Of a stretch of 64,000 nt of DNA, positions 10,326 through 61,675 are shown in pieces. Under the pieces are notes generated by a model, which saw only the letters and a list, made by a program, of their open reading frames with translations, had not been told where the DNA came from and did not search any database. The position numbers and the translations under genes are program-made. The DNA comes from Candidatus Moraniibacteriota bacterium (lineage in GTDB: Bacteria > Patescibacteriota > Minisyncoccia > Moranbacterales > JAPLXC01): NCBI GenBank assembly GCA_026396275.1, contig JAPLXC010000002.1:10618-74617 (forward strand), written 5' to 3'. Numbering within the stretch: position 1 is the first letter of the stretch; each line of letters opens with the position of its first letter.

Positions 10326-10385
10326 ACTAGTTTGTCTACTAATTATCCCGCTAAAGCGGGACCCCGCTGAGGCGGTGGCGAATCA

Positions 10386-10468
10386 AGTACTAATATACGA
10401 ATTTCAATTATGCCTAAGAAGGGTTTTGATAATTAGTATATTCGTATATGATTCGTAGTTCGTAGAGA
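10386..10468. repeat. TACGAAT/ATTCGTA heptamer cluster (inverted arms around a spacer) directly 3' of ruvB
   Basis: agtactaatatacgaattt ... ttagtatattcgtatatgattcgtagttcgtagag. One of seven similar clusters at gene boundaries. Confidence 0.55.
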
Positions 10469-11479
10469 TTACATCAGTTTTTGCTGATGATTACTGGGCA
10501 ACTTATGCCCCAAATGCCGAAAAGCGTTTTCGGTGACAACGCGCCCGCGGGGAGTCCTGGCTAAAAAGCCAATCTGAATGAGATACGGCTCAAATACATC
10601 TTCAATTGTTTGAATTTCCTCGGATGTCGCCGCCGCGATGGTCTGCACTCCCACCGGGCCTCCGTTGAATTTTAGAATTATTGTTTCCAGAATATGCCGG
10701 TCAATCAGTTCCAAGCCCACATCATCAATGTCCAACATTTTTAACGCCTGGCAGGTAACTTCGGCTGTTATCACATCGTGGTTGCTAATTTGAGCAAAGT
10801 CGCGCACGCGCTTTAGAATCCTGTTAGCCACCCGGGGGGTCTGCCGGCTGCGGACCGCCATTTCCCTGGCTGCGTCATTTTCCACATTCACGTCCAATAT
10901 CTTGCTGGAGCGATTAATTATTTTTTGAATTTCCTCCTCACCATAAAAGTCTAGACGGTGGATGATGCCGAACCGGTTGCGCAATGGATTGGAAATAGCG
11001 CCTAATCGGGTAGTGGCGCCAATCAAAGTAAAATGGGGAAGTTCCAGCTGAAGTGTGCGCGCTGATGGGCCCTTGCCGATGATTATATCAAGCTTGTGAT
11101 CCTCCATTGCTGGGTAAAGCACTTCTTCAATTAATTTATTAAGCCGGTGTATTTCATCAATAAAAAAAATATCTCCATCCTGAAGATTGGTAAGAATTGA
11201 TCCCAGATCTCCTACCCGCTCAATCGCCGGACCGGAAGTGATCTTGATGCTCGCTCCCATTTCCTTGGCAATAATGTAGGCCAGGGTTGTTTTCCCTAGT
11301 CCTGCCGGGCCGTAAAGGAGAACGTGTTCGATTGGCTCGCCGCGTTTTTTGGCTGCTTCAATGACAATTCGCAAATTTTTCTTTACTTTTTCCTGCCCGA
11401 CGTATTCAAAAAAGCTATTGGGCCGAAGCGTAGTGTCCAGTTTAACATCCTCAATTTTCTCACTGGAATTGGTGATCAT
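10469..11479 (-). CDS. ruvB: Holliday junction branch-migration helicase RuvB
   Basis: 336 aa. Walker [20 protein letters not shown]; full AAA+ and winged-helix layout. Confidence 0.92.
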
Positions 11480-12394: not shown

Positions 12395-12473
12395 TTGTGC
12401 TATTGCTCAAAAAAACTATAAAGGGACACGGAGAAATCCATGCCCTTTATTTTTTTATTAAACCCAAATGAAT

Positions 12474-12532
12474 TGTCATGCTGAACTCGATTCAGCATCT
12501 AATTAGATTCCGGCTCGAAGGCCGGAATGACA
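12474..12532. repeat. GTCAT-type modular double-hairpin palindromic element, full copy
   Basis: tgtcat-GCTGAActcgaTTCAGC-atctaattagat-TCCGGCtcgaagGCCGGA-atgaca. Ends 6 nt from the GIY-YIG stop codon. Confidence 0.7.
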
Positions 12533-12537
12533 AATAC

Positions 12538-12831: not shown

Positions 12832-12863
12832 AATTAGATCCCGGGTCAAGCCCGGGATGACAT
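12832..12863. repeat. GTCAT-type element, single-hairpin half copy, immediately 5' of the GIY-YIG start
   Basis: aattagat-CCCGGGtcaagCCCGGG-atgacat. Same scaffold as the 48139 copy. Confidence 0.55.
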
Positions 12864-23024: not shown

Positions 23025-23033
23025 CTGGTTACT

Positions 23034-23138
23034 AATTACGAATTATTTACTAATATACAAATATACGAATATTTTATCCTCTCTTTCTTTTTAGAAAGAA
23101 AATTAAGAGATTAAATTCGTATATTCGTATAAAATTCG
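23034..23138. repeat. TACGAAT/ATTCGTA heptamer cluster with a central palindrome, 3' of fpg
   Basis: ttacgaatt..actaatatacaaatatacgaatatt - ctctttctttttagaaagaaaa - attcgtatattcgtataaaattcg. Inverted arms around the ttctttttagaaagaa palindrome. Confidence 0.55.
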
Positions 23139-23258
23139 CCCGCCTGCTTCAAAATTAATTATATGGCGGGATTAATGAAATTATTTGCTCCGAAAAAATA
23201 ACTAACGATGGCAACTCAACAATGAAGCATTTCGGGCAGGTAATTCGTAAAGAAAATC

Positions 23259-33271: not shown

Positions 33272-33337
33272 TGTCATTCCCGCGAAAGCGGGAATCTAGA
33301 GAATTTTCTAGATTCCGGCTCGGAGGCCGGAATGACA
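33272..33337. repeat. GTCAT-type modular double-hairpin element, full copy between the two GT2 genes
   Basis: tgtcat-TCCCGCgaaaGCGGGA-atctagagaattttctagat-TCCGGCtcggagGCCGGA-atgaca. Starts 4 nt after the upstream stop codon. Confidence 0.7.
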
Positions 33338-33343
33338 TATTAT

Positions 33344-34143: not shown

Positions 34144-35496
34144 ATGGTTTATAAACTGCTTTTATTGTTCTGCCTCTATCTTCCCTTTCAAATCGCCTTA
34201 AATCCCAGCGAAGGAATTGACCTTGCTTCAGTAAGGGTAATAATCCCAATCCTGGCTTTATTATGGATTATTTCAGGTCTCAAAAACCGGCGGATTTTTA
34301 TTCCAGCGAAAATACAGACGGTTTTAATCATATTTTTTTTGTTCATAGCTGGCCTTTCACTATTTTGGGCAGATAATCAGGATTGGGGATTCCGGAAACT
34401 TTTGTTCTTGCTTTCAATCTTTCCGGTTTATTTTGTAGTAACCAGTATTATTCAATGTCATTCCCGCGAAAGCGGGAATCCAGAAATAAATGGCGTAGAT
34501 TCCGGCTCAGGGGCCGGAATGACATATCTGAATGTCAAAATTATCAAATTTCTCGTCTGGGGCGCGGGAGTTACATCTGTAATTGGCATAATTCAATTTC
34601 TTCTGCAATTTATGATTGGGCTGGATAATACTGCTGCAATTTGGAGAAATTACGTAACACCTCTGTTTTTAGGAAAATCATTTACTCATGCTGTTTTAGA
34701 ATATCCCAGCTGGCTGGTTAATGTTTCCGGGAAAGATTTTTTAAGGGCCTTTTCGACATTTCCCGATCCGCATATGCTTTCTTTTTATTTAGGGCTTTCG
34801 CTACCTTTGGCAATAGGATTATACTATGCTTTTAAAAAAAATATTTATTTATTTTTTTCTTTAATAATTTTAATCGCGAATCTCCTTACCTTTTCCCGTG
34901 GAGGGTATATCGGCTTGGCTGCCGGCCTGATTTTTATAGTTTTATATTTTGCTGTCAATAAAAAAATATCGGCTAAAAAACTTTTAGCTTCTCTTGTGCT
35001 GACACTGATTGTTTTGGCGTCTCTGGCGCTCACGCCAATCGGGAAGCGGGCCATTACCAGCTTCAGCACTGTTGAGGGCTCAAACAAGGTAAGATTTGAA
35101 AACTGGAATCAAGCGGTTAAAGTAATCAAAAATAATCCGCTGGGAGTGGGAATCGGCAATTATTCCTATGAAATTGAGCCCAGCGCTCCCTACCGGAAGC
35201 CGATTTACGCTCATAATTTATATCTTGACATCGCGGCGGAAACAGGAATTATCAATGCCATAATCTTTATATTGCTGGTCGTTTTTTCAATTAAAGATTT
35301 TGTGAAAAAATCAAAAGATAATATTTTATATCTAGGGAGTGCGGCGGGACTTGTGATTTTTTCAATCCATTCAGTTTTTGACACCGCGCTTTATTCAGTG
35401 CAAGTTCTGCCCCTGCTTTTAGTAATAATAGCTTTATCTGCTTCGAATAATTCCGGTAACACTATACTGCGGCCGCGGCATAGTGTTACCGGATGA
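34144..35496 (+). CDS. O-antigen ligase/polymerase-like (Wzy_C family) membrane protein with an in-frame repeat-element insertion
   Basis: 450 aa, multi-TM. Residues CHSRESGNPEINGVDSGSGAGMTY are encoded entirely by a GTCAT-type element. Confidence 0.55.
   Translation: MVYKLLLLFCLYLPFQIALNPSEGIDLASVRVIIPILALLWIISGLKNRRIFIPAKIQTVLIIFFLFIAGLSLFWADNQDWGFRKLLFLLSIFPVYFVVTSIIQCHSRESGNPEINGVDSGSGAGMTYLNVKIIKFLVWGAGVTSVIGIIQFLLQFMIGLDNTAAIWRNYVTPLFLGKSFTHAVLEYPSWLVNVSGKDFLRAFSTFPDPHMLSFYLGLSLPLAIGLYYAFKKNIYLFFSLIILIANLLTFSRGGYIGLAAGLIFIVLYFAVNKKISAKKLLASLVLTLIVLASLALTPIGKRAITSFSTVEGSNKVRFENWNQAVKVIKNNPLGVGIGNYSYEIEPSAPYRKPIYAHNLYLDIAAETGIINAIIFILLVVFSIKDFVKKSKDNILYLGSAAGLVIFSIHSVFDTALYSVQVLPLLLVIIALSASNNSGNTILRPRHSVTG
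34456..34525. repeat. GTCAT-type double-hairpin element inserted in frame within a CDS
   Basis: tgtcat-TCCCGCgaaaGCGGGA-atccagaaataaatggcgtagat-TCCGGCtcagggGCCGGA-atgaca. The element begins exactly at a codon boundary of ORF 34144..35496. Confidence 0.65.
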
Positions 35497-43521: not shown

Positions 43522-43920
43522 CTAGATAAAAATGTTTTCAAGATGGCTTATTTTAAATGCTTTTCGGTTTTCTCCGATCCAAACGGAAAGAGCGTCAAAA
43601 TGATACGGCTTATCCCAGGCGTTTTCCTGCTTAATATAAAACAAGGCGATTTTGTTTAATTTGTGAAGCTTGGCTTTGGTAATATTTTCCTCGGGAAGCG
43701 ACTTATCGCCAGCGGAAAGCTCCCGCGTTTTTACTTCCACAAAAACGATCTCGCCGTTTTTTTTGGCAATAATATCAATTTCACCAAGTCTTCGCCCGAG
43801 AGGATTTTTAAAATTTTTTTCCAGAACCTTGTATCCTTTGTTTTTTAAATATTCTGCCGCAATTTTTTCGCCCAGCTGCCCGGTATTTAATTTCTCTTTT
43901 TTCCAGAATAAAAGCTTCAT
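43522..43920 (-). CDS. yraN: YraN-family (UPF0102) endonuclease
   Basis: GEKIAAEYLKNKGYKVLEKNF ... GEIDIIAKKNGEIVFVEVKTR. Start re-set to MKLLFWKK. Confidence 0.7.
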   Translation of the reverse strand: MKLLFWKKEKLNTGQLGEKIAAEYLKNKGYKVLEKNFKNPLGRRLGEIDIIAKKNGEIVFVEVKTRELSAGDKSLPEENITKAKLHKLNKIALFYIKQENAWDKPYHFDALSVWIGENRKAFKISHLENIFI

Positions 43921-43977
43921 AATCAGATTATAGCAGAAAAAACAAAAAACACCCTTGGCTGGTGTTCTTTTTCCCAA

Positions 43978-44743
43978 TATTTATCAAACAATAACTTTAG
44001 TTATTGACTGATAGATATTGGGAACCGGGCGCTACTAACGCCCATAAAAATATAATTTTTTAGCGAGAGCGCCCGGTGTTTGTTGTATTGTCAACACACC
44101 AAGAGCACTTTTAGCCGGGTGAGAGGCATAAAATGGCATTCTTTGGGTGTGTATTTTGTACAATACCCCATGACATCCACTTCTGACTTAGTAATGTCTT
44201 TCCTCTACTATTCTCTGGCTTTTAGCCTTTTATCAAAGAACAAACTTTTTTATTTTTTGTATTTGTTTAAAAAAGTTTTTTTGTTTTTGTTTTAGGGTCT
44301 TGCTGTCAGATAGCAAGCGCCTAGTCCCGACGGGTAACTACCTTAAGAGACAGTCACTCGTTGGGGACTAGGACTTGAACAGTAGAAGAATTCCAATCAC
44401 AAATAGGGGGAAATTGTGATTGGAAATGCTTCCACCATTCGTTTTTAGGGCTTTTTAAGGTACAACCTGTCCTTATTATAGCAGAAAATAAACTAAGAGT
44501 CAATTCTCCCTAAGAAATTTTTGGCTAATCTTAGCGTTTAATCGGAAAGAAAACATCTCGGTATTATCCCAAATTGTCCTAAGAAATAAATACGGCATTC
44601 AGAAAAGTGATTTACTTTTTCCGGCTTAGTTAGGTAAAGTGTGGAAAATAAGCCGCATTCCTGACAAGTTATCAACAGGTTATTAAGAATTTTAAGCAAC
44701 TATTGTTTTTCTGAGCCTTTTTCTTGGACTTTTCCGAAGGGCT
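43978..44743. other. 766-bp gene-free, hairpin-rich region; candidate structured non-coding RNA locus
   Basis: No credible ORF. Nested stems: cccaatat...atattggg (44010-44060); ccgggcgct...agcgcccgg (44060-44115); cttgct-gtcagat-agcaag; cctagtccc...gggactagg (44305-44380); ccaatcacaa-ataggggga-aattgtgattgg (44395-44430). Confidence 0.35.
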
Positions 44744-45862
44744 CTAAAGAGCTATTTTGTCCAGTATCGCCCGGATGGTATTTTTGCTTGTTCCAATAAC
44801 TAATTGGTCGGCGGTAACAGCGTAGTCAATAGAAAGTGACTCTTCTGGATTAAGATTGGCGTAACGAATCGAGAAGTCCTTGTATGTGCTGCTTTGGAAT
44901 AATTTGTCTTTTTCCTGCGGGACAGCATCGAGAAAAAGGAAAGAGAGATCATTGATAAGTGTTTTTTCCTGGTTCTTCATCGCGGCAGTGGCTCTTCCCT
45001 TGTCTTTAAGATCTGCTGCTATTCCTATTCTAACATTTTCCGAATCGGGATAAAAGAAAAGAGAAAATTCTTCTCCTAAGTTACTTAATACCGGAGAGAG
45101 CTTGAGTCCCGAAAGAACAGCAAAGATATGAAACACTATGGGGTTATTGTTGCTGTCAGTAATGATAAACTCGATGGGAGAAGTTGTTTCTGATTTTTTA
45201 ATTTCAGAAGCAGTTTGAGCAAGTGTTTGCTTAAGTGTTTCAGGAGTGGCTATTTCAGTGTCGATGGAAAGATAGTTAGGTTTCTCCGCTGAAAATTTTT
45301 CTTCGATTTTTTCAACCGCTATCGGCTCTTCAGCGGGAGAAGGAATAACTGCTTCGGGAGTAGGAGCTGGGGCAGACGCGTTTCTGGTCAACCAGAAATA
45401 GTATCCTCCGGCAGCCAAAGCAAGAAAGGAAATAATTAAAGCGCTAACCAAAAGTATTTTTTTCCAATTAAAACCGCGTTTTGGATATTGCTCAACCGGT
45501 GTTTTAGATTCCCGGCGCGGAAGAGACGGACCGCTTTTTTTAGAAAGATCGTCTGGACGAGAAGCCGGAGAGTAGAATTTGGGAGAGGGAGGAACATTTA
45601 AAAAAGGGCTGGAGGATTGAGAAGTATCAGGCCTGTACTCTGCCGAGTTGTGACGCTTGGGAGGGGCGAAAAAATCTTTTTTTCTTTCCGGGTCGCTATA
45701 TTGCCTTGCTTCTTCTGGTGGAGCAGTCAATCCTTCAATAGCATTAAGATCATCCTGCATTGTATGAAGCGGAAAGTCCTCGCCGGCCGTGCCAGATCCC
45801 CTTTTTGGAATGTCGGGACTGACGGGCTGATAATTGTTTTTGTTATTTTTAAAACCGAACAT
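44744..45862 (-). CDS. Hypothetical membrane-anchored protein with a Pro/Ser-rich N-terminal region
   Basis: 372 aa. Cytoplasmic P/S-rich low complexity, a single TM helix (ILLVSALIISFLALAAGGYYFWL), then an extracytoplasmic domain. Confidence 0.4.
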   Translation of the reverse strand: MFGFKNNKNNYQPVSPDIPKRGSGTAGEDFPLHTMQDDLNAIEGLTAPPEEARQYSDPERKKDFFAPPKRHNSAEYRPDTSQSSSPFLNVPPSPKFYSPASRPDDLSKKSGPSLPRRESKTPVEQYPKRGFNWKKILLVSALIISFLALAAGGYYFWLTRNASAPAPTPEAVIPSPAEEPIAVEKIEEKFSAEKPNYLSIDTEIATPETLKQTLAQTASEIKKSETTSPIEFIITDSNNNPIVFHIFAVLSGLKLSPVLSNLGEEFSLFFYPDSENVRIGIAADLKDKGRATAAMKNQEKTLINDLSFLFLDAVPQEKDKLFQSSTYKDFSIRYANLNPEESLSIDYAVTADQLVIGTSKNTIRAILDKIAL

Positions 45863-48138: not shown

Positions 48139-48203
48139 TGTCATCCCGGACTTGATCCGGGATCTAATCTAATTAGATGCTGAATCAAGTTCAGCGTGAC
48201 ATT
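48139..48203. repeat. GTCAT-type modular double-hairpin element upstream of pnp
   Basis: tgtcat-CCCGGActtgaTCCGGG-atctaatctaattagat-GCTGAAtcaagTTCAGC-gtgacat. Confidence 0.7.
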
Positions 48204-48285
48204 TATGCTAATTAAACTCTCATTTTTGAGCTTACCTAACGCACCAGCAAAGGACTATTTAATAAATTTGTTAAGTATTAAAACA

Positions 48286-49837: not shown

Positions 49838-50119
49838 TTATCCACCTTCTTCAGTTCTTTCTGCTGCGAACAATTTCATATGCTGTTTTTCTACTTCTGA
49901 AAGCGATTCGGTTTCTTTTATAAAACCAACCAGTGCCTCCCTTAATTTTTCGGCATAATCAGCTTCACCCTCATCGCCAATTGCCACTCCTATCTTTTCT
50001 TGGGCGTCTAGTAATTCTTCCAGAGTTTTCAATCCCCTAATGTATCTTATCATATCCTCCTTTAAAACCTCAATTTCTTTGTTTTCTTTTTGGCCTTCAA
50101 AAAATTTTGATTCATTCAT
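49838..50119 (-). CDS. Hypothetical acidic coiled-coil protein
   Basis: 93 aa, no motif recognised. Confidence 0.3.
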   Translation of the reverse strand: MNESKFFEGQKENKEIEVLKEDMIRYIRGLKTLEELLDAQEKIGVAIGDEGEADYAEKLREALVGFIKETESLSEVEKQHMKLFAAERTEEGG

Positions 50120-50136
50120 AGTTTTTTAGTTGATAA

Positions 50137-50177
50137 TTATTCGTATATTCGTACCTAATTCGTAATTCGTAGAGAAA
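50137..50177. repeat. ATTCGTA heptamer x4 direct cluster immediately 3' of gyrA
   Basis: attcgtat attcgtac cta attcgta attcgtag ag, ending at the gyrA stop. Resembles the post-ruvB copy (attcgtagttcgtagag). Confidence 0.55.
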
Positions 50178-52619
50178 TTACAGCACTGCCGCCGCCGATA
50201 TTTTGTCTCCCGCCTCTGGGCGCATAATCCGCACTCCCTGAGTGGCTCTTCCCAGCACCGATATGCTTTTGAGAGGAATTCTGATTATCTGGCCTTTTTC
50301 CGAAGTAATAATCATATCTCCTTCAATGTCATCTACGTTAGCTATGTTAGCCCCGACTAGTTTTCCGGTCTTGGTAGTAACTTTAGCGGTTTTGATTCCC
50401 GAGCCGCCCCGGCGCTGGACCTTATAAGATCTGAGATCTGTTCTTTTGCCAAATCCGTTCTCACTGATTATCAGAAGTTGATTCCCTTTTTGCCCTTTAA
50501 GTACCGCGTTCATGCCGACGACTAAATCATCCTTTCTTAATTTAATTCCCCGTACTCCGGAAGCATTTCGCCCCATTGGCCGCACATCCGATTCTTTAAA
50601 GTGAATAGCTTGGCCGTGAGAGGTGGTAATGACAATTTCATCCGTTCCGGTCGTTGCCTTTACCCACCCCAGCGTGTCTTGTTTTTCGAGTTTGATAGCA
50701 ATAAGCCCACTGCGGCGTACATTGTCAAAATCGGAGAGGTGGATCTTTTTAACAATGCCGTGCTCGGTGGTCATAAAGAAATATTTGTAATTGTCGCTTT
50801 TGCTATAGGGGATCATTTCGGTTATTTTTTCATCCGAAGCAAGCTGCAAAAAGTTCACGATCGCCTGGCCCTTGGCTGTTCGTGTTGATTCCGGAATCTC
50901 GTATGCTTTGGTTTGATACACTTTTCCGGTATTGGTAAAAAACATTAAGTTATCGTGAGTCATCACACTGGTAACCTGTTCGATGACATCTCCTTCTTTG
51001 GTGGTGGCTCCAATCACTCCTTTTCCGCCGCGTTTTTGCACCCGGTACGCGCCCGGATTCATTCGCTTGATATAGCCATCCTGGCTCAAAGTAATAATCG
51101 CTTCATCATTGGCTATCAGATCTTCCTGCTTGAACTCGCCGATTCCCGAGCGAACCACCTTTGTTTTTCGCTCGTCGCCGTATTTTTCCTGAATTTCCCC
51201 TAGCTCCTTTTTTATGGTCTCCGAGATTTTTTTCGGGCTTTTAAGAAGTGCCTCCAATTGGACAATGAGCTGTTTCTTTTCTTTGAGCTCATCGTCTATT
51301 TTGCGACGCTCCAGCCCAGCCAGTGTTTGAAGTTTCATTTCCAAAATGGCCGTTGCTTGCTGATCAGAAAAACGGAATCGCTTAATCAAATTCTGGTGGG
51401 CTATTTCCCGGGTAGCTGATTTTTTGATGGTGCTAATAATAGCATCAATATGATCCAGCGCCTTTTTTAGTCCTTCTAAAATGTGAGCGCGTTCCTTGGC
51501 TCGAGTCAGGTCAAATTTGACTCGACGGGTTATTACAATCCGGCGGTGATCAATGAAAAAGGAGAGAATCGATTTCAGGTTAATCACTCTTGGTTCAATT
51601 CCCTCAACCAGCGCCAGCATATTGACGTTAAAATTTTTCTGAAGATCAGTGTTTGAATAAAGCGAATTCAGCACTTTTTGAGGATAAGCATCTTTTTTCA
51701 GATCAACCACGATTCTCACTCCTTCTTTGCCGGACTCGTCGCGAATGTCTTTAATTCCCTGAATTTTTCCGTCTTTTGTTAACTGGGCAATTTTTTCTAT
51801 TAGGACTGATTTATTAGTAGCATAAGTTATTTCACTGACAATGATCTGGAAACTCCCTACTTTTGTTTCGGTAATTTCAGCCTTGGCCCGGGTAATGATT
51901 TTTCCTCTTCCAGTAGAATAGGCCTCTTTAATATCTTTAGCGTTGTAAATTATTCCCCCGGTGGGGAAATCAGGTCCCTGAATGAATTTCATCAGTTCCT
52001 CGGTGCCGGCTTCCGGATTATCAATAAGGTAAATCAAAGCGCTTACGACTTCAGAAAGATTGTGGGGAGGAATGCTGGTTGCCATTCCCACCGCGATTCC
52101 CATCGTTCCATTAAGAATGAGCTGGGGAATTTTAGCCGGAAGAACTACCGGCTCCTGATGAACGCCGTCAAAATTGGGGACAAAATCAACTGTCTCTCTT
52201 TCAATGTCAGAAAGTATTTCCTCGGCAATGGGCGCAAGCTTTGCTTCAGTGTAGCGGTAGGCGGCGGCGCTGTCTCCGTCCAGAGACCCAAAGTTTCCCT
52301 GTCCCCAGACTAGCGGGTAGCGCATATTGAAATCCTGGGACAGGCGGACCATTGAATCGTAAACGGCCACGTCTCCGTGAGGGTGGTATTTCCCAATAAC
52401 TTCTCCCACAACGGTAGCGGATTTTCGGAATTTAGCTCCCGGCCGGAGGCCGCTGTTCCACATGGAATAAAGAATGCGGCGATGAACCGGTTTCATCCCA
52501 TCGCGGACATCCGGCAGGGCGCGCGAAACAATTACGCTCATGGCGTAATCCAAATATGATTGCTGAATTTCTTCAGTTATCTCTCTGGGATGGATGGTTT
52601 CCTTTTTCTTCTGTTCCAT
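50178..52619 (-). CDS. gyrA: DNA gyrase subunit A
   Basis: 813 aa. Active-site region [11 protein letters not shown] (Tyr), a GyrA-box-like C-terminal beta-pinwheel with QRRGGSGI. Confidence 0.93.
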
Positions 52620-52958: not shown

Positions 52959-52971
52959 TAGAATAAAATCT

Positions 52972-53076
52972 TTACGAATTACGAATCTAGTACTAATATA
53001 CGAATTTTTTTAACCAAAAATTAAGTGAAGCAATTAAACTTATCTTTGGATATTGGTATATTCGTATTAAATTAGT
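52972..53076. repeat. TACGAAT/ATTCGTA heptamer cluster between a hypothetical gene and the MBL hydrolase gene
   Basis: tttacgaattacgaatctagtactaatatacgaattt ... ggtatattcgtatt. ctagtactaatatacgaattt is identical to the post-ruvB copy. Confidence 0.55.
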
Positions 53077-53088
53077 AATTAGTAAAGA

Positions 53089-53748
53089 TTACTCCACACT
53101 CATTATCACCACTTCCATACTTTTCTCTTCCAAATCCCTTTTCTTAAAAGACAGTTTATTTGATTTTTGGCTGGGGCAATTTCCCATTTCAGCGCAGAAT
53201 TTCTTTTCGTCAGCGATATCAATGGCCGAACCCTTGATTTTGTAGTGCATCGGAATAACAATTGCTGGCTCAATTTTTCTTACCAACTCTGCCGCTTTTT
53301 TGCCATCAAGAGTGATTTTGCCACCCACTGGAATAAACAAGACATCTATTCCGTCAATTTCTTCAAGCTGTTCCGAAGTAAGATCGGTTCCCAAGTCCCC
53401 CAAGTGGCAGATTTTCATTTCTTCCGATTCAATAACAAAAACAGTACTGTGTCCTCTTTCCTCTCCTCCCTTTTCATCATGAAATGTGTCTATCCCAACA
53501 GCGTTTATGCCTCTGGCTGAATACTCCCCCGGAAGATCAATAACAAGCGGGCCATTCTTAAGTGCAGAAGTATTGTTATGATCGTAATGATCATGGGATA
53601 CAAAAACAATATCCGCGTGCCCCTGAGGTGACCGCAGTCCAATGGAGCGATCAAAAGGGTCGGTAAAAATGACCACATCTTCAGTGGCTCTTCCTGCTGG
53701 TTTGGTTGTTATTTTAAAACAAGAATGGCCGTAATATTGGATATTCAC
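53089..53748 (-). CDS. MBL-fold metal-dependent hydrolase (UPF0173-like)
   Basis: Motif VFVSHDHYDHNN. Start re-set to the GTG giving (M)NIQYYGHSCFKI, because the track N-terminal extension to 53799 reads through a repeat element. Confidence 0.65.
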   Translation of the reverse strand: MNIQYYGHSCFKITTKPAGRATEDVVIFTDPFDRSIGLRSPQGHADIVFVSHDHYDHNNTSALKNGPLVIDLPGEYSARGINAVGIDTFHDEKGGEERGHSTVFVIESEEMKICHLGDLGTDLTSEQLEEIDGIDVLFIPVGGKITLDGKKAAELVRKIEPAIVIPMHYKIKGSAIDIADEKKFCAEMGNCPSQKSNKLSFKKRDLEEKSMEVVIMSVE

Positions 53749-53754
53749 GATTTC

Positions 53755-53812
53755 TTTACGAATTACCTGCCTGCCGGCAGGCAGGCGAATAACGTACAAA
53801 TATACGAATTAT
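53755..53812. repeat. TACGAAT heptamer pair around the GC palindrome tgcctgccggcaggca, upstream of the MBL hydrolase gene
   Basis: tttacgaattacc-tgcctgccggcaggca-ggcgaataacgtacaaatatacgaattatt. Confidence 0.5.
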
Positions 53813-60982: not shown

Positions 60983-61101
60983 GATCATGGAACATATAGC
61001 ATGAAACATGTAACATTAACAGGGAAAGATTTTACAAAACAGGAATTGGTAGATTAGTAAAGAAATTCATATTAAGAGCGATGAAAAGTTTAAGTAAATC
61101 G

Positions 61102-61164
61102 GGCAATTAGCTCAGTTGGTTACCCGCCCGAACGTACCGTCGTTCGGTACGGGCGGGGAGTGCT
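61102..61164 (+). tRNA. tRNA 5' portion (acceptor + D-arm) interrupted by a 35-36-nt perfect hairpin; the matching 3' portion appears to lie at about 61612-61665
   Basis: GGGCAAT-TA-GCTC-AGTTGGTTA, then CCCGCCCGAACGTACCGTCGTTCGGTACGGGCGGGG, then GAGTGC. The 3' segment ...GAGTGCCCCGATGTAACATCGGGGAGGTCGCTGGTTCGATTCCAGCATTGCCCA has an acceptor 3' strand ATTGCCC perfectly complementary to GGGCAAT. Coordinates +/-1. Confidence 0.4.
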
Positions 61165-61170
61165 ATATTT

Positions 61171-61431
61171 ATGTATACCGTATACGTGTTACAAGACAAA
61201 GAAGGAAAATTTTACAAAGGTGTTACAAATAATATTAAGCGCCGACTCTATGAACATAAACAGGGCAAAACAAAAACTACAAGAAAGATGGACGAGTTAA
61301 AAATTGTTTACACAGAAAAATACAAAAACTTTAAAGAAGTGAGAAGAAGAGAAGTTTATTTTAAAACTGCAGCAGGAAGAAGATTTTTAAAGAAAATATT
61401 AAATAAAAGGGCGACTAGCTCAGCTGGTTAG
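61171..61431 (+). CDS. Small GIY-YIG nuclease (second copy), embedded in the tRNA locus with its stop codon inside tRNA-Val
   Basis: 86 aa. MYTVYVLQDKEGKFYKGVTNNIKRRLYEHKQG is a GIY-YIG signature. Track coordinates used; my hand count puts the ATG at 61172. Confidence 0.6.
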   Translation: MYTVYVLQDKEGKFYKGVTNNIKRRLYEHKQGKTKTTRKMDELKIVYTEKYKNFKEVRRREVYFKTAAGRRFLKKILNKRATSSAG

Positions 61432-61483
61432 AGCGTCACATTGACATTGTGAAGGTCACAGGTTCAAGTCCTGTGTCGCCCAC
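61410..61483 (+). tRNA. tRNA-Val (anticodon GAC)
   Basis: GGGCGAC-TA-GCTC-AGCTGGTTA-GAGC-G-TCACA-TTGACAT-TGTGA-AGGTC-ACAGG-TTCAAGT-CCTGT-GTCGCCC-A, 74 nt, full cloverleaf. Coordinates +/-1. Confidence 0.8.
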
Positions 61484-61587
61484 TTAGTTCAGTTGGTTAC
61501 CCGCCCGAACGTACCGTCGTTCGGTACGGGCGGGGAGCGCTTCGTTGACATCGAAGAGGTCTGCAGTTCGAGTCTGCACAAGCCCAC
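61484..61587 (+). tRNA. tRNA-Val(GAC)-like pseudo/variant copy lacking a matching 5' acceptor strand and carrying the same hairpin in its D-loop
   Basis: TA-GTTC-AGTTGGTTA-[36-nt hairpin 61501-61536]-GAGC-G-CTTCG-TTGACAT-CGAAG-AGGTC-TGCAG-TTCGAGT-CTGCA-CAAGCCC-A. No GGGCTTG 5' strand. Flanked by the direct repeat GCCCACTT (61479-61486 and 61583-61590). Confidence 0.4.
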
Positions 61588-61675
61588 TTGTTTATATATA
61601 GGCAATTTTAGAGTGCCCCGATGTAACATCGGGGAGGTCGCTGGTTCGATTCCAGCATTGCCCACTCAAAATAAA

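Follow-up and report, generated by a model that had tools for sequence, protein, structure and literature searches.

The DNA examined here is a 64,000-nt stretch, hereafter the window, of a contig from a Candidatus Moraniibacteriota bacterium. The element in question lies in a gap between two of its genes and is an independent non-coding RNA (ncRNA) gene that runs on the minus strand from position 44468 to about 43934, with its own sigma-70-type promoter and intrinsic terminator. All genes between 36.9 and 53.8 kb are on the minus strand. The immediate neighbours of the gap are, downstream, a YraN/UPF0102 gene (43522–43920, Pfam PF02021) and, upstream, an open reading frame (ORF) of 372 amino acids (aa) (44744–45862), beyond which, further upstream, the PNPase gene is placed. 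The start of yraN is most likely the ATG at 43920 and not the TTG at 43977, and with this start the gene-free interval becomes 43921–44743. An earlier inspection of the bare sequence (the original prediction) had described this gap as the largest non-coding stretch, and it is indeed the window's largest gap between ORFs of at least 110 aa. The same description called it ORF-free, which is not literally true, given the mechanical ORFs of 42–71 aa inside it; none of these is conserved, however. The homologs presented below have about eight stops per frame over 490 nt, and their longest sense ORF has a median length of 45 aa and no conserved position.

The promoter (44475–44503, minus strand) consists of TTGACT, a 17-nt spacer and TGcTATAAT, an extended −10, and matches the consensus at 11 of 12 positions. 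TTGAC and TG-TATA-T are at least 90% conserved over 110 homologs. From the predicted start, A44468, to the U-run of the intrinsic terminator (AACACC-loop-GGUGUU followed by the U-run, 43934–43970), the gene spans 43934–44468, or about 520–535 nt, and the corresponding length in homologs has a median of 519 nt. The candidate RNA had been drawn as 43978–44743; the RNA occupies only 43934–44468 on the minus strand, and the 240 nt upstream of it (44504–44743) are a spacer. Right after the terminator lies a second extended −10, TGCTATAAT (43935–43927), which ends 7 nt before the yraN ATG. Therefore, in the window genome yraN appears to have its own, leaderless start. The yraN −10 region (43918–43935) and the −10 of the RNA promoter have the 14-mer ATTATAGCAGAAAA (plus strand) in common.

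Compared with dinucleotide shuffles, the segment 43940–44470 has folding z-scores of −10.9 (minus strand) and −9.8 (plus strand), and none of 100 shuffles folded as well. In the helices described below, the ratio of G-U pairs to A-C mismatches is 351:178 overall and 80:13 in the 5′ hairpin H1, an excess that fits the minus strand as the RNA. The CCACCA to which the original prediction drew attention is present at 44433–44438 of the plus strand, but as a clue it is irrelevant, since the plus strand is not the transcribed one; the RNA carries UGGUGG instead, which forms part of the 5′ strand of H1 and is not a tRNA-like 3′ end. The four complementary pairs quoted with it are all present, namely I1 (43971–43996/43999–44024, which holds cccaatat/atattggg), I12 (44024–44033/44068–44077), I18 (44320–44328/44364–44372) and I6 (44391–44402/44414–44425). 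Their label as long-range pairs does not hold, with arms only 2–35 nt apart; they are local hairpins.

A search among genome contigs with the 372-aa neighbour found no relative. Relatives were reached instead by a protein homolog search followed by retrieval of the encoding contigs, of which six were taken. NT136_00350 of a Candidatus Moranbacteria bacterium matches the 372-aa protein at 100% identity, and the best relatives of this protein are only 31–48% identical. In all six relatives at this level of identity, a gene-free gap of 670–890 nt lies directly upstream of yraN; in one of them (locus L005) the gap is kept although two other genes have been inserted between it and the gene for the 372-aa homolog. 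The gap DNA aligns far better than the flanking proteins would predict. Besides the promoter, its conserved blocks include a hairpin of 36 nt, a block rich in A, TCACCCG and a hairpin rich in G+C. Compensatory changes could be made out by eye.

The top of H1 was then used as an exact pattern in a scan of genomes, which gave 113 species-level genomes with one match each, labelled almost all as Moranbacteria, Moraniibacteriota, Parcubacteria or Patescibacteria. The median pairwise identity of the core among homologs is 57%. On the same strand, a 372-aa homolog is found upstream in 107 of 113 loci and yraN downstream in 102 of 114; the other 12 have the RNA with no yraN next to it. Metagenomes supplied more than 100 additional copies, in a scan that imposed only the stem of H1, left its 11-nt loop free and returned at least 120 loci. 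Among the metagenome matches listed (n = 120), 106 have exactly UUUCCCCCUAU as the loop and 6 have one-base variants; the loop is likewise identical in all seven loci that were reached via the neighbouring protein. Since the loop is invariant even where the search did not impose it, it must be under very strong constraint. Within the 64-kb window, neither a repeat search nor a covariance model (CM) search found a second copy of the RNA. A scan of viral contigs with a loop 17-mer gave one match, which we attribute to chance, as it sits in a ribosome-binding site and has no H1 stem.

Base pairing was evaluated by mapping the helices of a typical member (L052) onto MAFFT alignments that had not been fitted to any structure, and counting pairs. 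The analysis was done block by block, because whole-length MAFFT alignment with RNAalifold gave only H1 and H9. In the 5′ hairpin H1 (48 sequences) 95.2% of the alignment cells are paired, with a covariation score of 0.439 as against 0.168 for shuffles and 0.05–0.13 for slid controls. The central domain (36 sequences) is 79.1% paired (0.356 versus 0.167 and 0.06–0.15), and the 3′ domain (39 sequences) is 79.2% paired (0.411 versus 0.190 and 0.06–0.13). None of 500 shuffles reached the observed scores. RNAalifold independently predicts H7/H8 and H9, with compensated changes in 21 of 24 pairs. Furthermore, a CM of the 3′ domain, built from 28 homologs with the window left out, matches the window once, at 44018–44167 of the minus strand (95.4 bits, E = 4e-19), as opposed to 19 bits on the plus strand, and it finds one copy, on the strand of H1, in 81 of 100 loci. 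In the CM alignment (78 sequences), which is fitted to the model and hence leans towards the structure, pairing reaches 90.7% of cells, and changes on both sides were seen for 37 of the 38 pairs. Thus, the stems are kept in related genomes, with covariation, and the original prediction of a structured RNA is borne out: about ten covarying helices and a pseudoknot, with conserved promoter and terminator, are present as a single copy in more than 100 species. Promoter, terminator, compensated structure and lack of a conserved ORF are together the generic features of a structured ncRNA gene.

The architecture, given here from 5′ to 3′ with window positions on the minus strand, begins with H1 (44378–44439), a long hairpin of about 25 bp with its 5′ strand at 44439–44414 and its 3′ strand at 44402–44378. 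Changes on both sides are seen in 8 of 11 outer and 4 of 10 inner pairs, and the nearly invariant apical loop UUUCCCCCUAU occupies 44403–44413. H2 (44320–44372) is larger in the window than in relatives, where a stem of 8 bp carries the loop C-AAC-G; all eight pairs covary (88% of cells paired). It is followed by H3 (44299–44317) with the loop AUCUGAC (44311–44305) and by an A-rich single-stranded linker, ACCCUAAAACAAAAACAAAAAAAC (44275–44298), in which many A columns are invariant or nearly so. H4 (I3, 44239–44281) is an A/U-rich hairpin whose pair support is weak owing to alignment problems. The junction strand GUUCUUUGAUAAAA (44228–44241), which holds GUUCUUU, has TTC-TT columns that are at least 90% conserved. 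GUUCUUUGAUAAAA/GUUCUUU (segment GUUCUUUGA), in which GUUCUUU is conserved throughout the family, may be similar to the boxA of Gram-positive rRNA leaders, to which NusB/S10 bind. H5 (44217–44227) is a GGC-loop-GCC hairpin that is 98% paired, with GGC/GCC replaced by GGU/ACC in six sequences. H6 (44172–44198) carries the loop GUCAGAA (44187–44181), complementary to that of H3.

In the 3′ domain, the long-range helix H7/H8 (44085–44166), formed by 44166–44146 with 44100–44085, has a conserved AAAU bulge, encloses H8a and H8b, and is 87–88% paired in the MAFFT alignment and 95–98% in the CM alignment. H8b displays a conserved C-rich loop, UCUCACCC (stem and loop, 44114–44127); the TCACCC of this loop is invariant in A5/A7, and the stem covaries between UGGUU/AACCA, CGCC/GGCG and UGCGC/GCGCA. 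H9 (44024–44077) is a G+C-rich hairpin, ACCGGGCGCU/AGCGCCCGGU, followed by UUCCCA; ten of its 11 pairs covary, and it is about 87% paired in the MAFFT alignment and 99% in the CM alignment. The last hairpin before the terminator, H10 (I1, 43971–44023), has 26 bp in the window and is variable or absent in homologs, being absent for example in L052. The conserved unpaired elements are therefore the two C-rich loops (UUUCCCCCUAU and UYUCACCC), the A-rich linker AAAACAAAAACAAAAA, GUUCUUU and the AAAU bulge.

Not all members share every part of this architecture. A first divergent subgroup (L008, L011, L025, L028, L036, L055, L059, L062, L074, L076, L079, L089, L097 and L115) has no H3 and no H6, and keeps H1, the helix P-LR described below (with its sequences replaced) and the 3′ domain. 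A second (L016, L026, L084 and L118) shows neither the usual synteny nor most of the 3′-domain motifs. About 15% of the family (among them L013, L021, L033, L041, L050, L069, L072, L104 and L109) have an extra conserved hairpin of about 60–70 nt (AUUGGGACCUAC...GUAGGAUCCCAAU) inserted at H4, after the A-rich linker, which could represent a peripheral domain that only some members have, or a small element that has been inserted.

The loops of H3 and H6 form the pseudoknot. UUCUGAC, the H3 loop, is exactly complementary to GUCAGAA, the H6 loop; the resulting 7-bp interaction is 95% paired across homologs, with four of the seven pairs changed on both sides. The co-changes include UUCUGAG/CUCAGAA (12 sequences), UUCUAAC/GUUAGAA (5) and UUCUAAG/CUUAGAA (2), as well as UUCCUAC/GUAGGAA, UCUGGC/GCCAGA, UUCUGAU/AUCAGAA and others. 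In homologs without H6, the H3 loop is degenerate or unrelated, or H3 is missing altogether. That the two loops change together and are lost together is the mark of a functional kissing loop and points to a compact three-dimensional fold.

A second feature of the architecture is a strand with two partners. The ‘mid’ strand UUCUUCUACUGUUC (44377–44390) can pair either with the 5′ segment, forming the outer part of H1, or with the 3′ segment GAAUAGUAGAGGAA (44200–44213), forming P-LR, which closes a multi-helix junction holding H2–H5. P-LR is 91% paired across homologs, with exchanges between UA/CG (15), AU/GC (9) and CG/UA (6). Outer H1 and P-LR use the same nucleotides of mid and are thus mutually exclusive, and each shows changes on both sides, which is the mark of a bistable RNA. 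In addition, duplex energies distinguish true partners from borrowed ones: the mean for 5′ segment/mid is −14.9 kcal/mol for cognate and −8.8 kcal/mol for non-cognate strands, and that for mid/3′ segment is −17.0 versus −11.1 kcal/mol, as opposed to −3.0 versus −2.9 for the control duplex of 5′ segment with 3′ segment. In a divergent subgroup the sequences are replaced (CUUCCCC/GGGGAGG) and the pairing is kept. In many homologs the two conformers also differ in energy by no more than a few kcal/mol. Both alternative pairings are therefore maintained by compensatory evolution, and the exchange of helices may be a folding switch.

With respect to known families, Rfam 15 searched at gathering thresholds gave a single tRNA in the window and nothing but tRNAs in 18 homologous loci. 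When the cut-off was relaxed to E ≤ 10 for this region, taken from the window and from L052, only hairpin noise appeared (microRNA and small nucleolar RNA models, and Phe_leader at 21 bits). The models of RNase P (RF00010/RF00011), transfer-messenger RNA (tmRNA), signal recognition particle (SRP) RNA and 6S RNA (RF00013) gave no match at either level, nor did those of OLE, ROOL, GOLLD, HEARO and raiA. The Rfam comparison that the original prediction had proposed thus yielded no family. We also found no description of such an RNA in the literature searched on ncRNA in Moranbacteria, Parcubacteria and the Candidate Phyla Radiation (CPR), including papers on ncRNA discovery. Taken together, these results strongly support a previously uncatalogued class of large structured ncRNA, specific to the uncultured Moranbacteria as far as seen, and of the possibilities raised at the outset (a divergent housekeeping RNA, a novel ncRNA or a degraded mobile element) it is the novel ncRNA that covariation, promoter and terminator, and single-copy conservation support.

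What would the alternatives be? The RNA could be an extremely divergent housekeeping RNA (RNase P, tmRNA, SRP or 6S) missed by the Rfam models. It is single-copy, of similar size and, judged by its promoter motif, strongly expressed; like RNase P RNA, which measures 350–500 nt, it has long-range helices. In the CPR, divergent RNase P RNAs have been reported, and some of these score too low for Rfam to accept them (PMC8172020). AGAGGAAAGAC and CCCGGCUAA bear a loose resemblance to CR-I and CR-V of RNase P, in the window alone. However, GAGGAAAG becomes GAAGUAAA or CACAUAAG in relatives, and the two words lie about 90 nt apart without forming a P4-type pseudoknot; the CR-I (GAGGAAAGUCC) and CR-V (ACAGAAnnCGGCUUA) that would form P4 were not found as conserved elements, and the architecture is unrelated to that of RNase P RNA. 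ARAGORN called no tmRNA in the window or in any of 121 loci, and the A-rich tract has no conserved frame. A 6S RNA would be an irregular hairpin with a bubble at its centre and a length of about 180 nt, which is at odds with a multi-helix junction in about 520 nt. The long H1, the 5-way junction, the kissing loop and the two C-rich loops fit none of the four families. With Rfam (even at E ≤ 10), ARAGORN and motif tests all negative, we consider a divergent housekeeping RNA unlikely. Somewhat easier to entertain, though still improbable, is a very long cis-acting 5′ leader of yraN-dksA-like-lspA in which the alternative helices serve as the expression platform. The RNA does lie on the same strand directly upstream of yraN in 102 of 114 loci, its helices are mutually exclusive, a terminator went undetected in 29 of 103 homologs and an own yraN promoter is seen in a minority. 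Nevertheless, the alternative helices lie 300–450 nt upstream of the terminator and have no overlap with it; in the window the terminator is followed by a separate extended −10, with the yraN ATG 7 nt downstream; the 12 loci in which yraN is absent or 1.6–4.5 kb away keep the RNA; and some 500 nt with ten helices and a pseudoknot are far larger than known leaders. Elsewhere, yraN homologs are not known to have such a leader.

Two further readings fare worse still. According to the first, the gap is an element acting at the DNA level, that is, an origin or DnaA locus, REP/MITE-like palindromes or a degraded mobile element. This would agree with the DnaA-box-like motifs conserved just upstream, with the other small palindromic repeat families of the window and with the observation that both strands fold about equally. 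Single-copy, syntenic conservation, with one match per genome in 113 genomes, rules out the degraded mobile element; long-range helices and a loop–loop contact that covary are not needed by DNA palindromes; and the strand-specific excess of G-U pairs, the conserved promoter and terminator, and the 95 versus 19 bits of the CM all point to RNA. We therefore give a DNA-level element very little credence. Least plausible of all is a coding role for the gap, with one or more small proteins made from, for instance, the 42–71-aa ORFs or the 58-aa gene that one pipeline called in L002. While such mechanical ORFs do exist, the homologs have about eight stops per frame, no conserved ORF position and indels that are not multiples of three, and their substitutions follow the base pairs.

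Having weighed these alternatives, we return to an independent ncRNA gene and to what its product might do. In our proposal, the RNA would act in trans as a compact, tertiary-folded scaffold or as the core of a ribonucleoprotein (RNP), with the two C-rich loops and the A-rich linker serving to dock a conserved partner, which would be a protein or else an RNA rich in G. The exchange of partners among 5′ segment, mid and 3′ segment would be a programmed folding or activation switch. The extended H1 would be the first to form during transcription; the later-made 3′ segment would then displace the 5′ segment from mid and close the junction through P-LR; and closure of the junction would place H6 beside H3 for the kissing contact. 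Whereas the existence and architecture of the RNA follow directly from the data, a trans-acting scaffold that displays its C-rich loops is our best guess as to function. As a joint explanation, an independent ncRNA gene of about 520 nt, acting in trans as a scaffold with a folding switch, is the one we favour and hold to be somewhat probable. A bolder version makes the RNA the core of a lineage-specific RNP, or of a machine built from RNA alone (a ribozyme or a homo-oligomeric ‘ornate’ assembly), with an essential role in Moranbacteria and with its activity gated by the helix-exchange switch; we regard this as a tentative and rather doubtful possibility.

Several observations weigh against the favoured explanation. 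Sequences complementary to the two C-rich loops occur in the window no more often than chance would give. The transcript ends, at about 44468 and 43934, are predictions from sequence motifs alone. By a crude rule, only 74 of 103 homologs have a terminator-like hairpin with a T-run; a clear promoter of yraN was seen in no more than 25–51 of 102, so that read-through into yraN is possible. With regard to the switch, constrained folds of 75 homologs make the extended H1 more stable by a mean of 6.8 kcal/mol. The two conformers come within 3 kcal/mol of each other in 16 of the 75, and in the window P-LR is favoured by 2.2. These nearest-neighbour energies leave out the kissing loop and any protein. 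Since they favour the extended H1, P-LR may depend on tertiary contacts or a protein, or form only transiently.

The neighbouring genes were considered as sources of a partner. The 372-aa protein, for which neither Pfam nor NCBIfam gave a match, is confined to Moranbacteria-like genomes. Its cytoplasmic N-terminus, about 135 aa long, basic and disordered, is followed by a single transmembrane helix and by a C-terminal domain of about 210 aa. The protein may interact with the RNA as a partner or may simply be syntenic; its folded part is unlikely to touch a cytoplasmic RNA because it lies beyond the transmembrane helix. YraN was rejected as a partner: it is reported to resolve D-loops in natural transformation (bioRxiv 10.1101/2024.02.06.579203), and some loci have kept the RNA in the absence of yraN.

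New classes of large and intricate bacterial RNA are rare, the usual list being OLE, GOLLD, ROOL, HEARO and raiA, and we found none described for the CPR. The present RNA resembles these in being several hundred nucleotides long and encoded by a stand-alone gene, in its many covarying helices, pseudoknot-type contacts and conserved unpaired nucleotides, in its narrow phylogenetic range and in that its function cannot be deduced from its neighbours. The RNA described here adjoins a gene for a membrane protein much as ole adjoins oapA, a likeness that is no more than an analogy. Unlike those classes it has no match in Rfam 15, and its hosts belong to the CPR, not to Bacillota or phages; neither the helix exchange nor the two C-rich loops are known from any of them. 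For the proposed exchange, the nearest likeness may be found in the tac/fbi/ucb elements of hok mRNA and the alpha/beta/gamma elements of ColE1 RNA II, which show programmed folding and three-way covariation. There, as would be the case here, one strand has two exclusive partners, an early-made and a late-made one, with both pairings compensated. Those RNAs, however, are a plasmid mRNA and a replication primer, whereas the locus here has no ORF, antisense partner or plasmid, and the likeness would be one of function only. As for the loops, small RNAs of the RsaE/RoxS type, which are about 100 nt long and simple in structure, bind G-rich ribosome-binding sites through C-rich hairpin loops. The present RNA might be likened to them for displaying conserved C-rich motifs in hairpin loops; it differs in its large size and in that complementary sequences in the window occur only at chance level.

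CPR genomes, of about 1 Mb, are thought to shed non-essential content. That such tiny genomes keep a 0.5-kb RNA gene with a strong promoter, near-invariant loops, a covarying kissing loop and mutually exclusive helices argues for an important function. Each of the earlier large RNA classes opened new biology or new principles of RNA structure. If the RNA is indeed a lineage-specific machine with a switch, it would be the first large functional ncRNA class specific to the CPR. The family, with more than 200 diverse sequences, is sufficient for structure prediction and cryo-electron microscopy, and would provide a clean natural example of programmed helix exchange. Annotation of CPR genomes would also improve, as the locus is now left blank or mis-called as small ORFs.

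Other observations concern the surroundings of the RNA gene and the rest of the window. The upstream spacer, outside the RNA, carries two DnaA-box-like 9-mers with one mismatch each (44669–44677 and 44640–44648). In relatives, a DnaA-box-like CTGTGGATAACTTGTG is found 160–200 nt upstream of the RNA −10 in 91 of 115 loci, with a perfect TGTGGATAA in 74, and a second motif, TGTGGACAA, sometimes follows CTGTGGATAACTTGTG by 11 nt. The DnaA-box-like motif lies just past the stop codon of the 372-aa gene (for example in L003, L005, L006 and L007). A replication origin was considered at this locus and rejected, as the window has only the two one-mismatch boxes, and neither a turn or minimum of GC skew nor a switch of gene strand is found there.

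Elsewhere, positions 61099–61670 hold a cluster of tRNA-like pieces around tRNA-Val(GAC), of which only one is recognised as a tRNA by ARAGORN and Rfam. The same 35-nt G+C-rich palindrome sits in the D-loop of a tRNA 5′ half and of a second Val-like tRNA body, a small GIY-YIG-like ORF lies between the tRNA pieces, and the acceptor strand of the 3′ piece, ATTGCCC, matches the 5′ strand GGGCAAT about 500 nt upstream. This region may be an interrupted or rearranged tRNA gene. Short intergenic REP-like palindromes (TAGATTCCGGCTCGAAGGCCGGAATGACA and relatives) occur at 12471–12535, 12833–12862, 33309–33340, 34496–34527 and 48139–48204. Finally, A/T-rich intergenic blocks of the ‘ATTCGTATATTCGTA’ type lie at 10379–10472, 23030–23147, 50103–50180, 52964–53092 and 53751–53811, and include a 78-nt inverted pair that flanks a gyrA-like gene (50178–52619).

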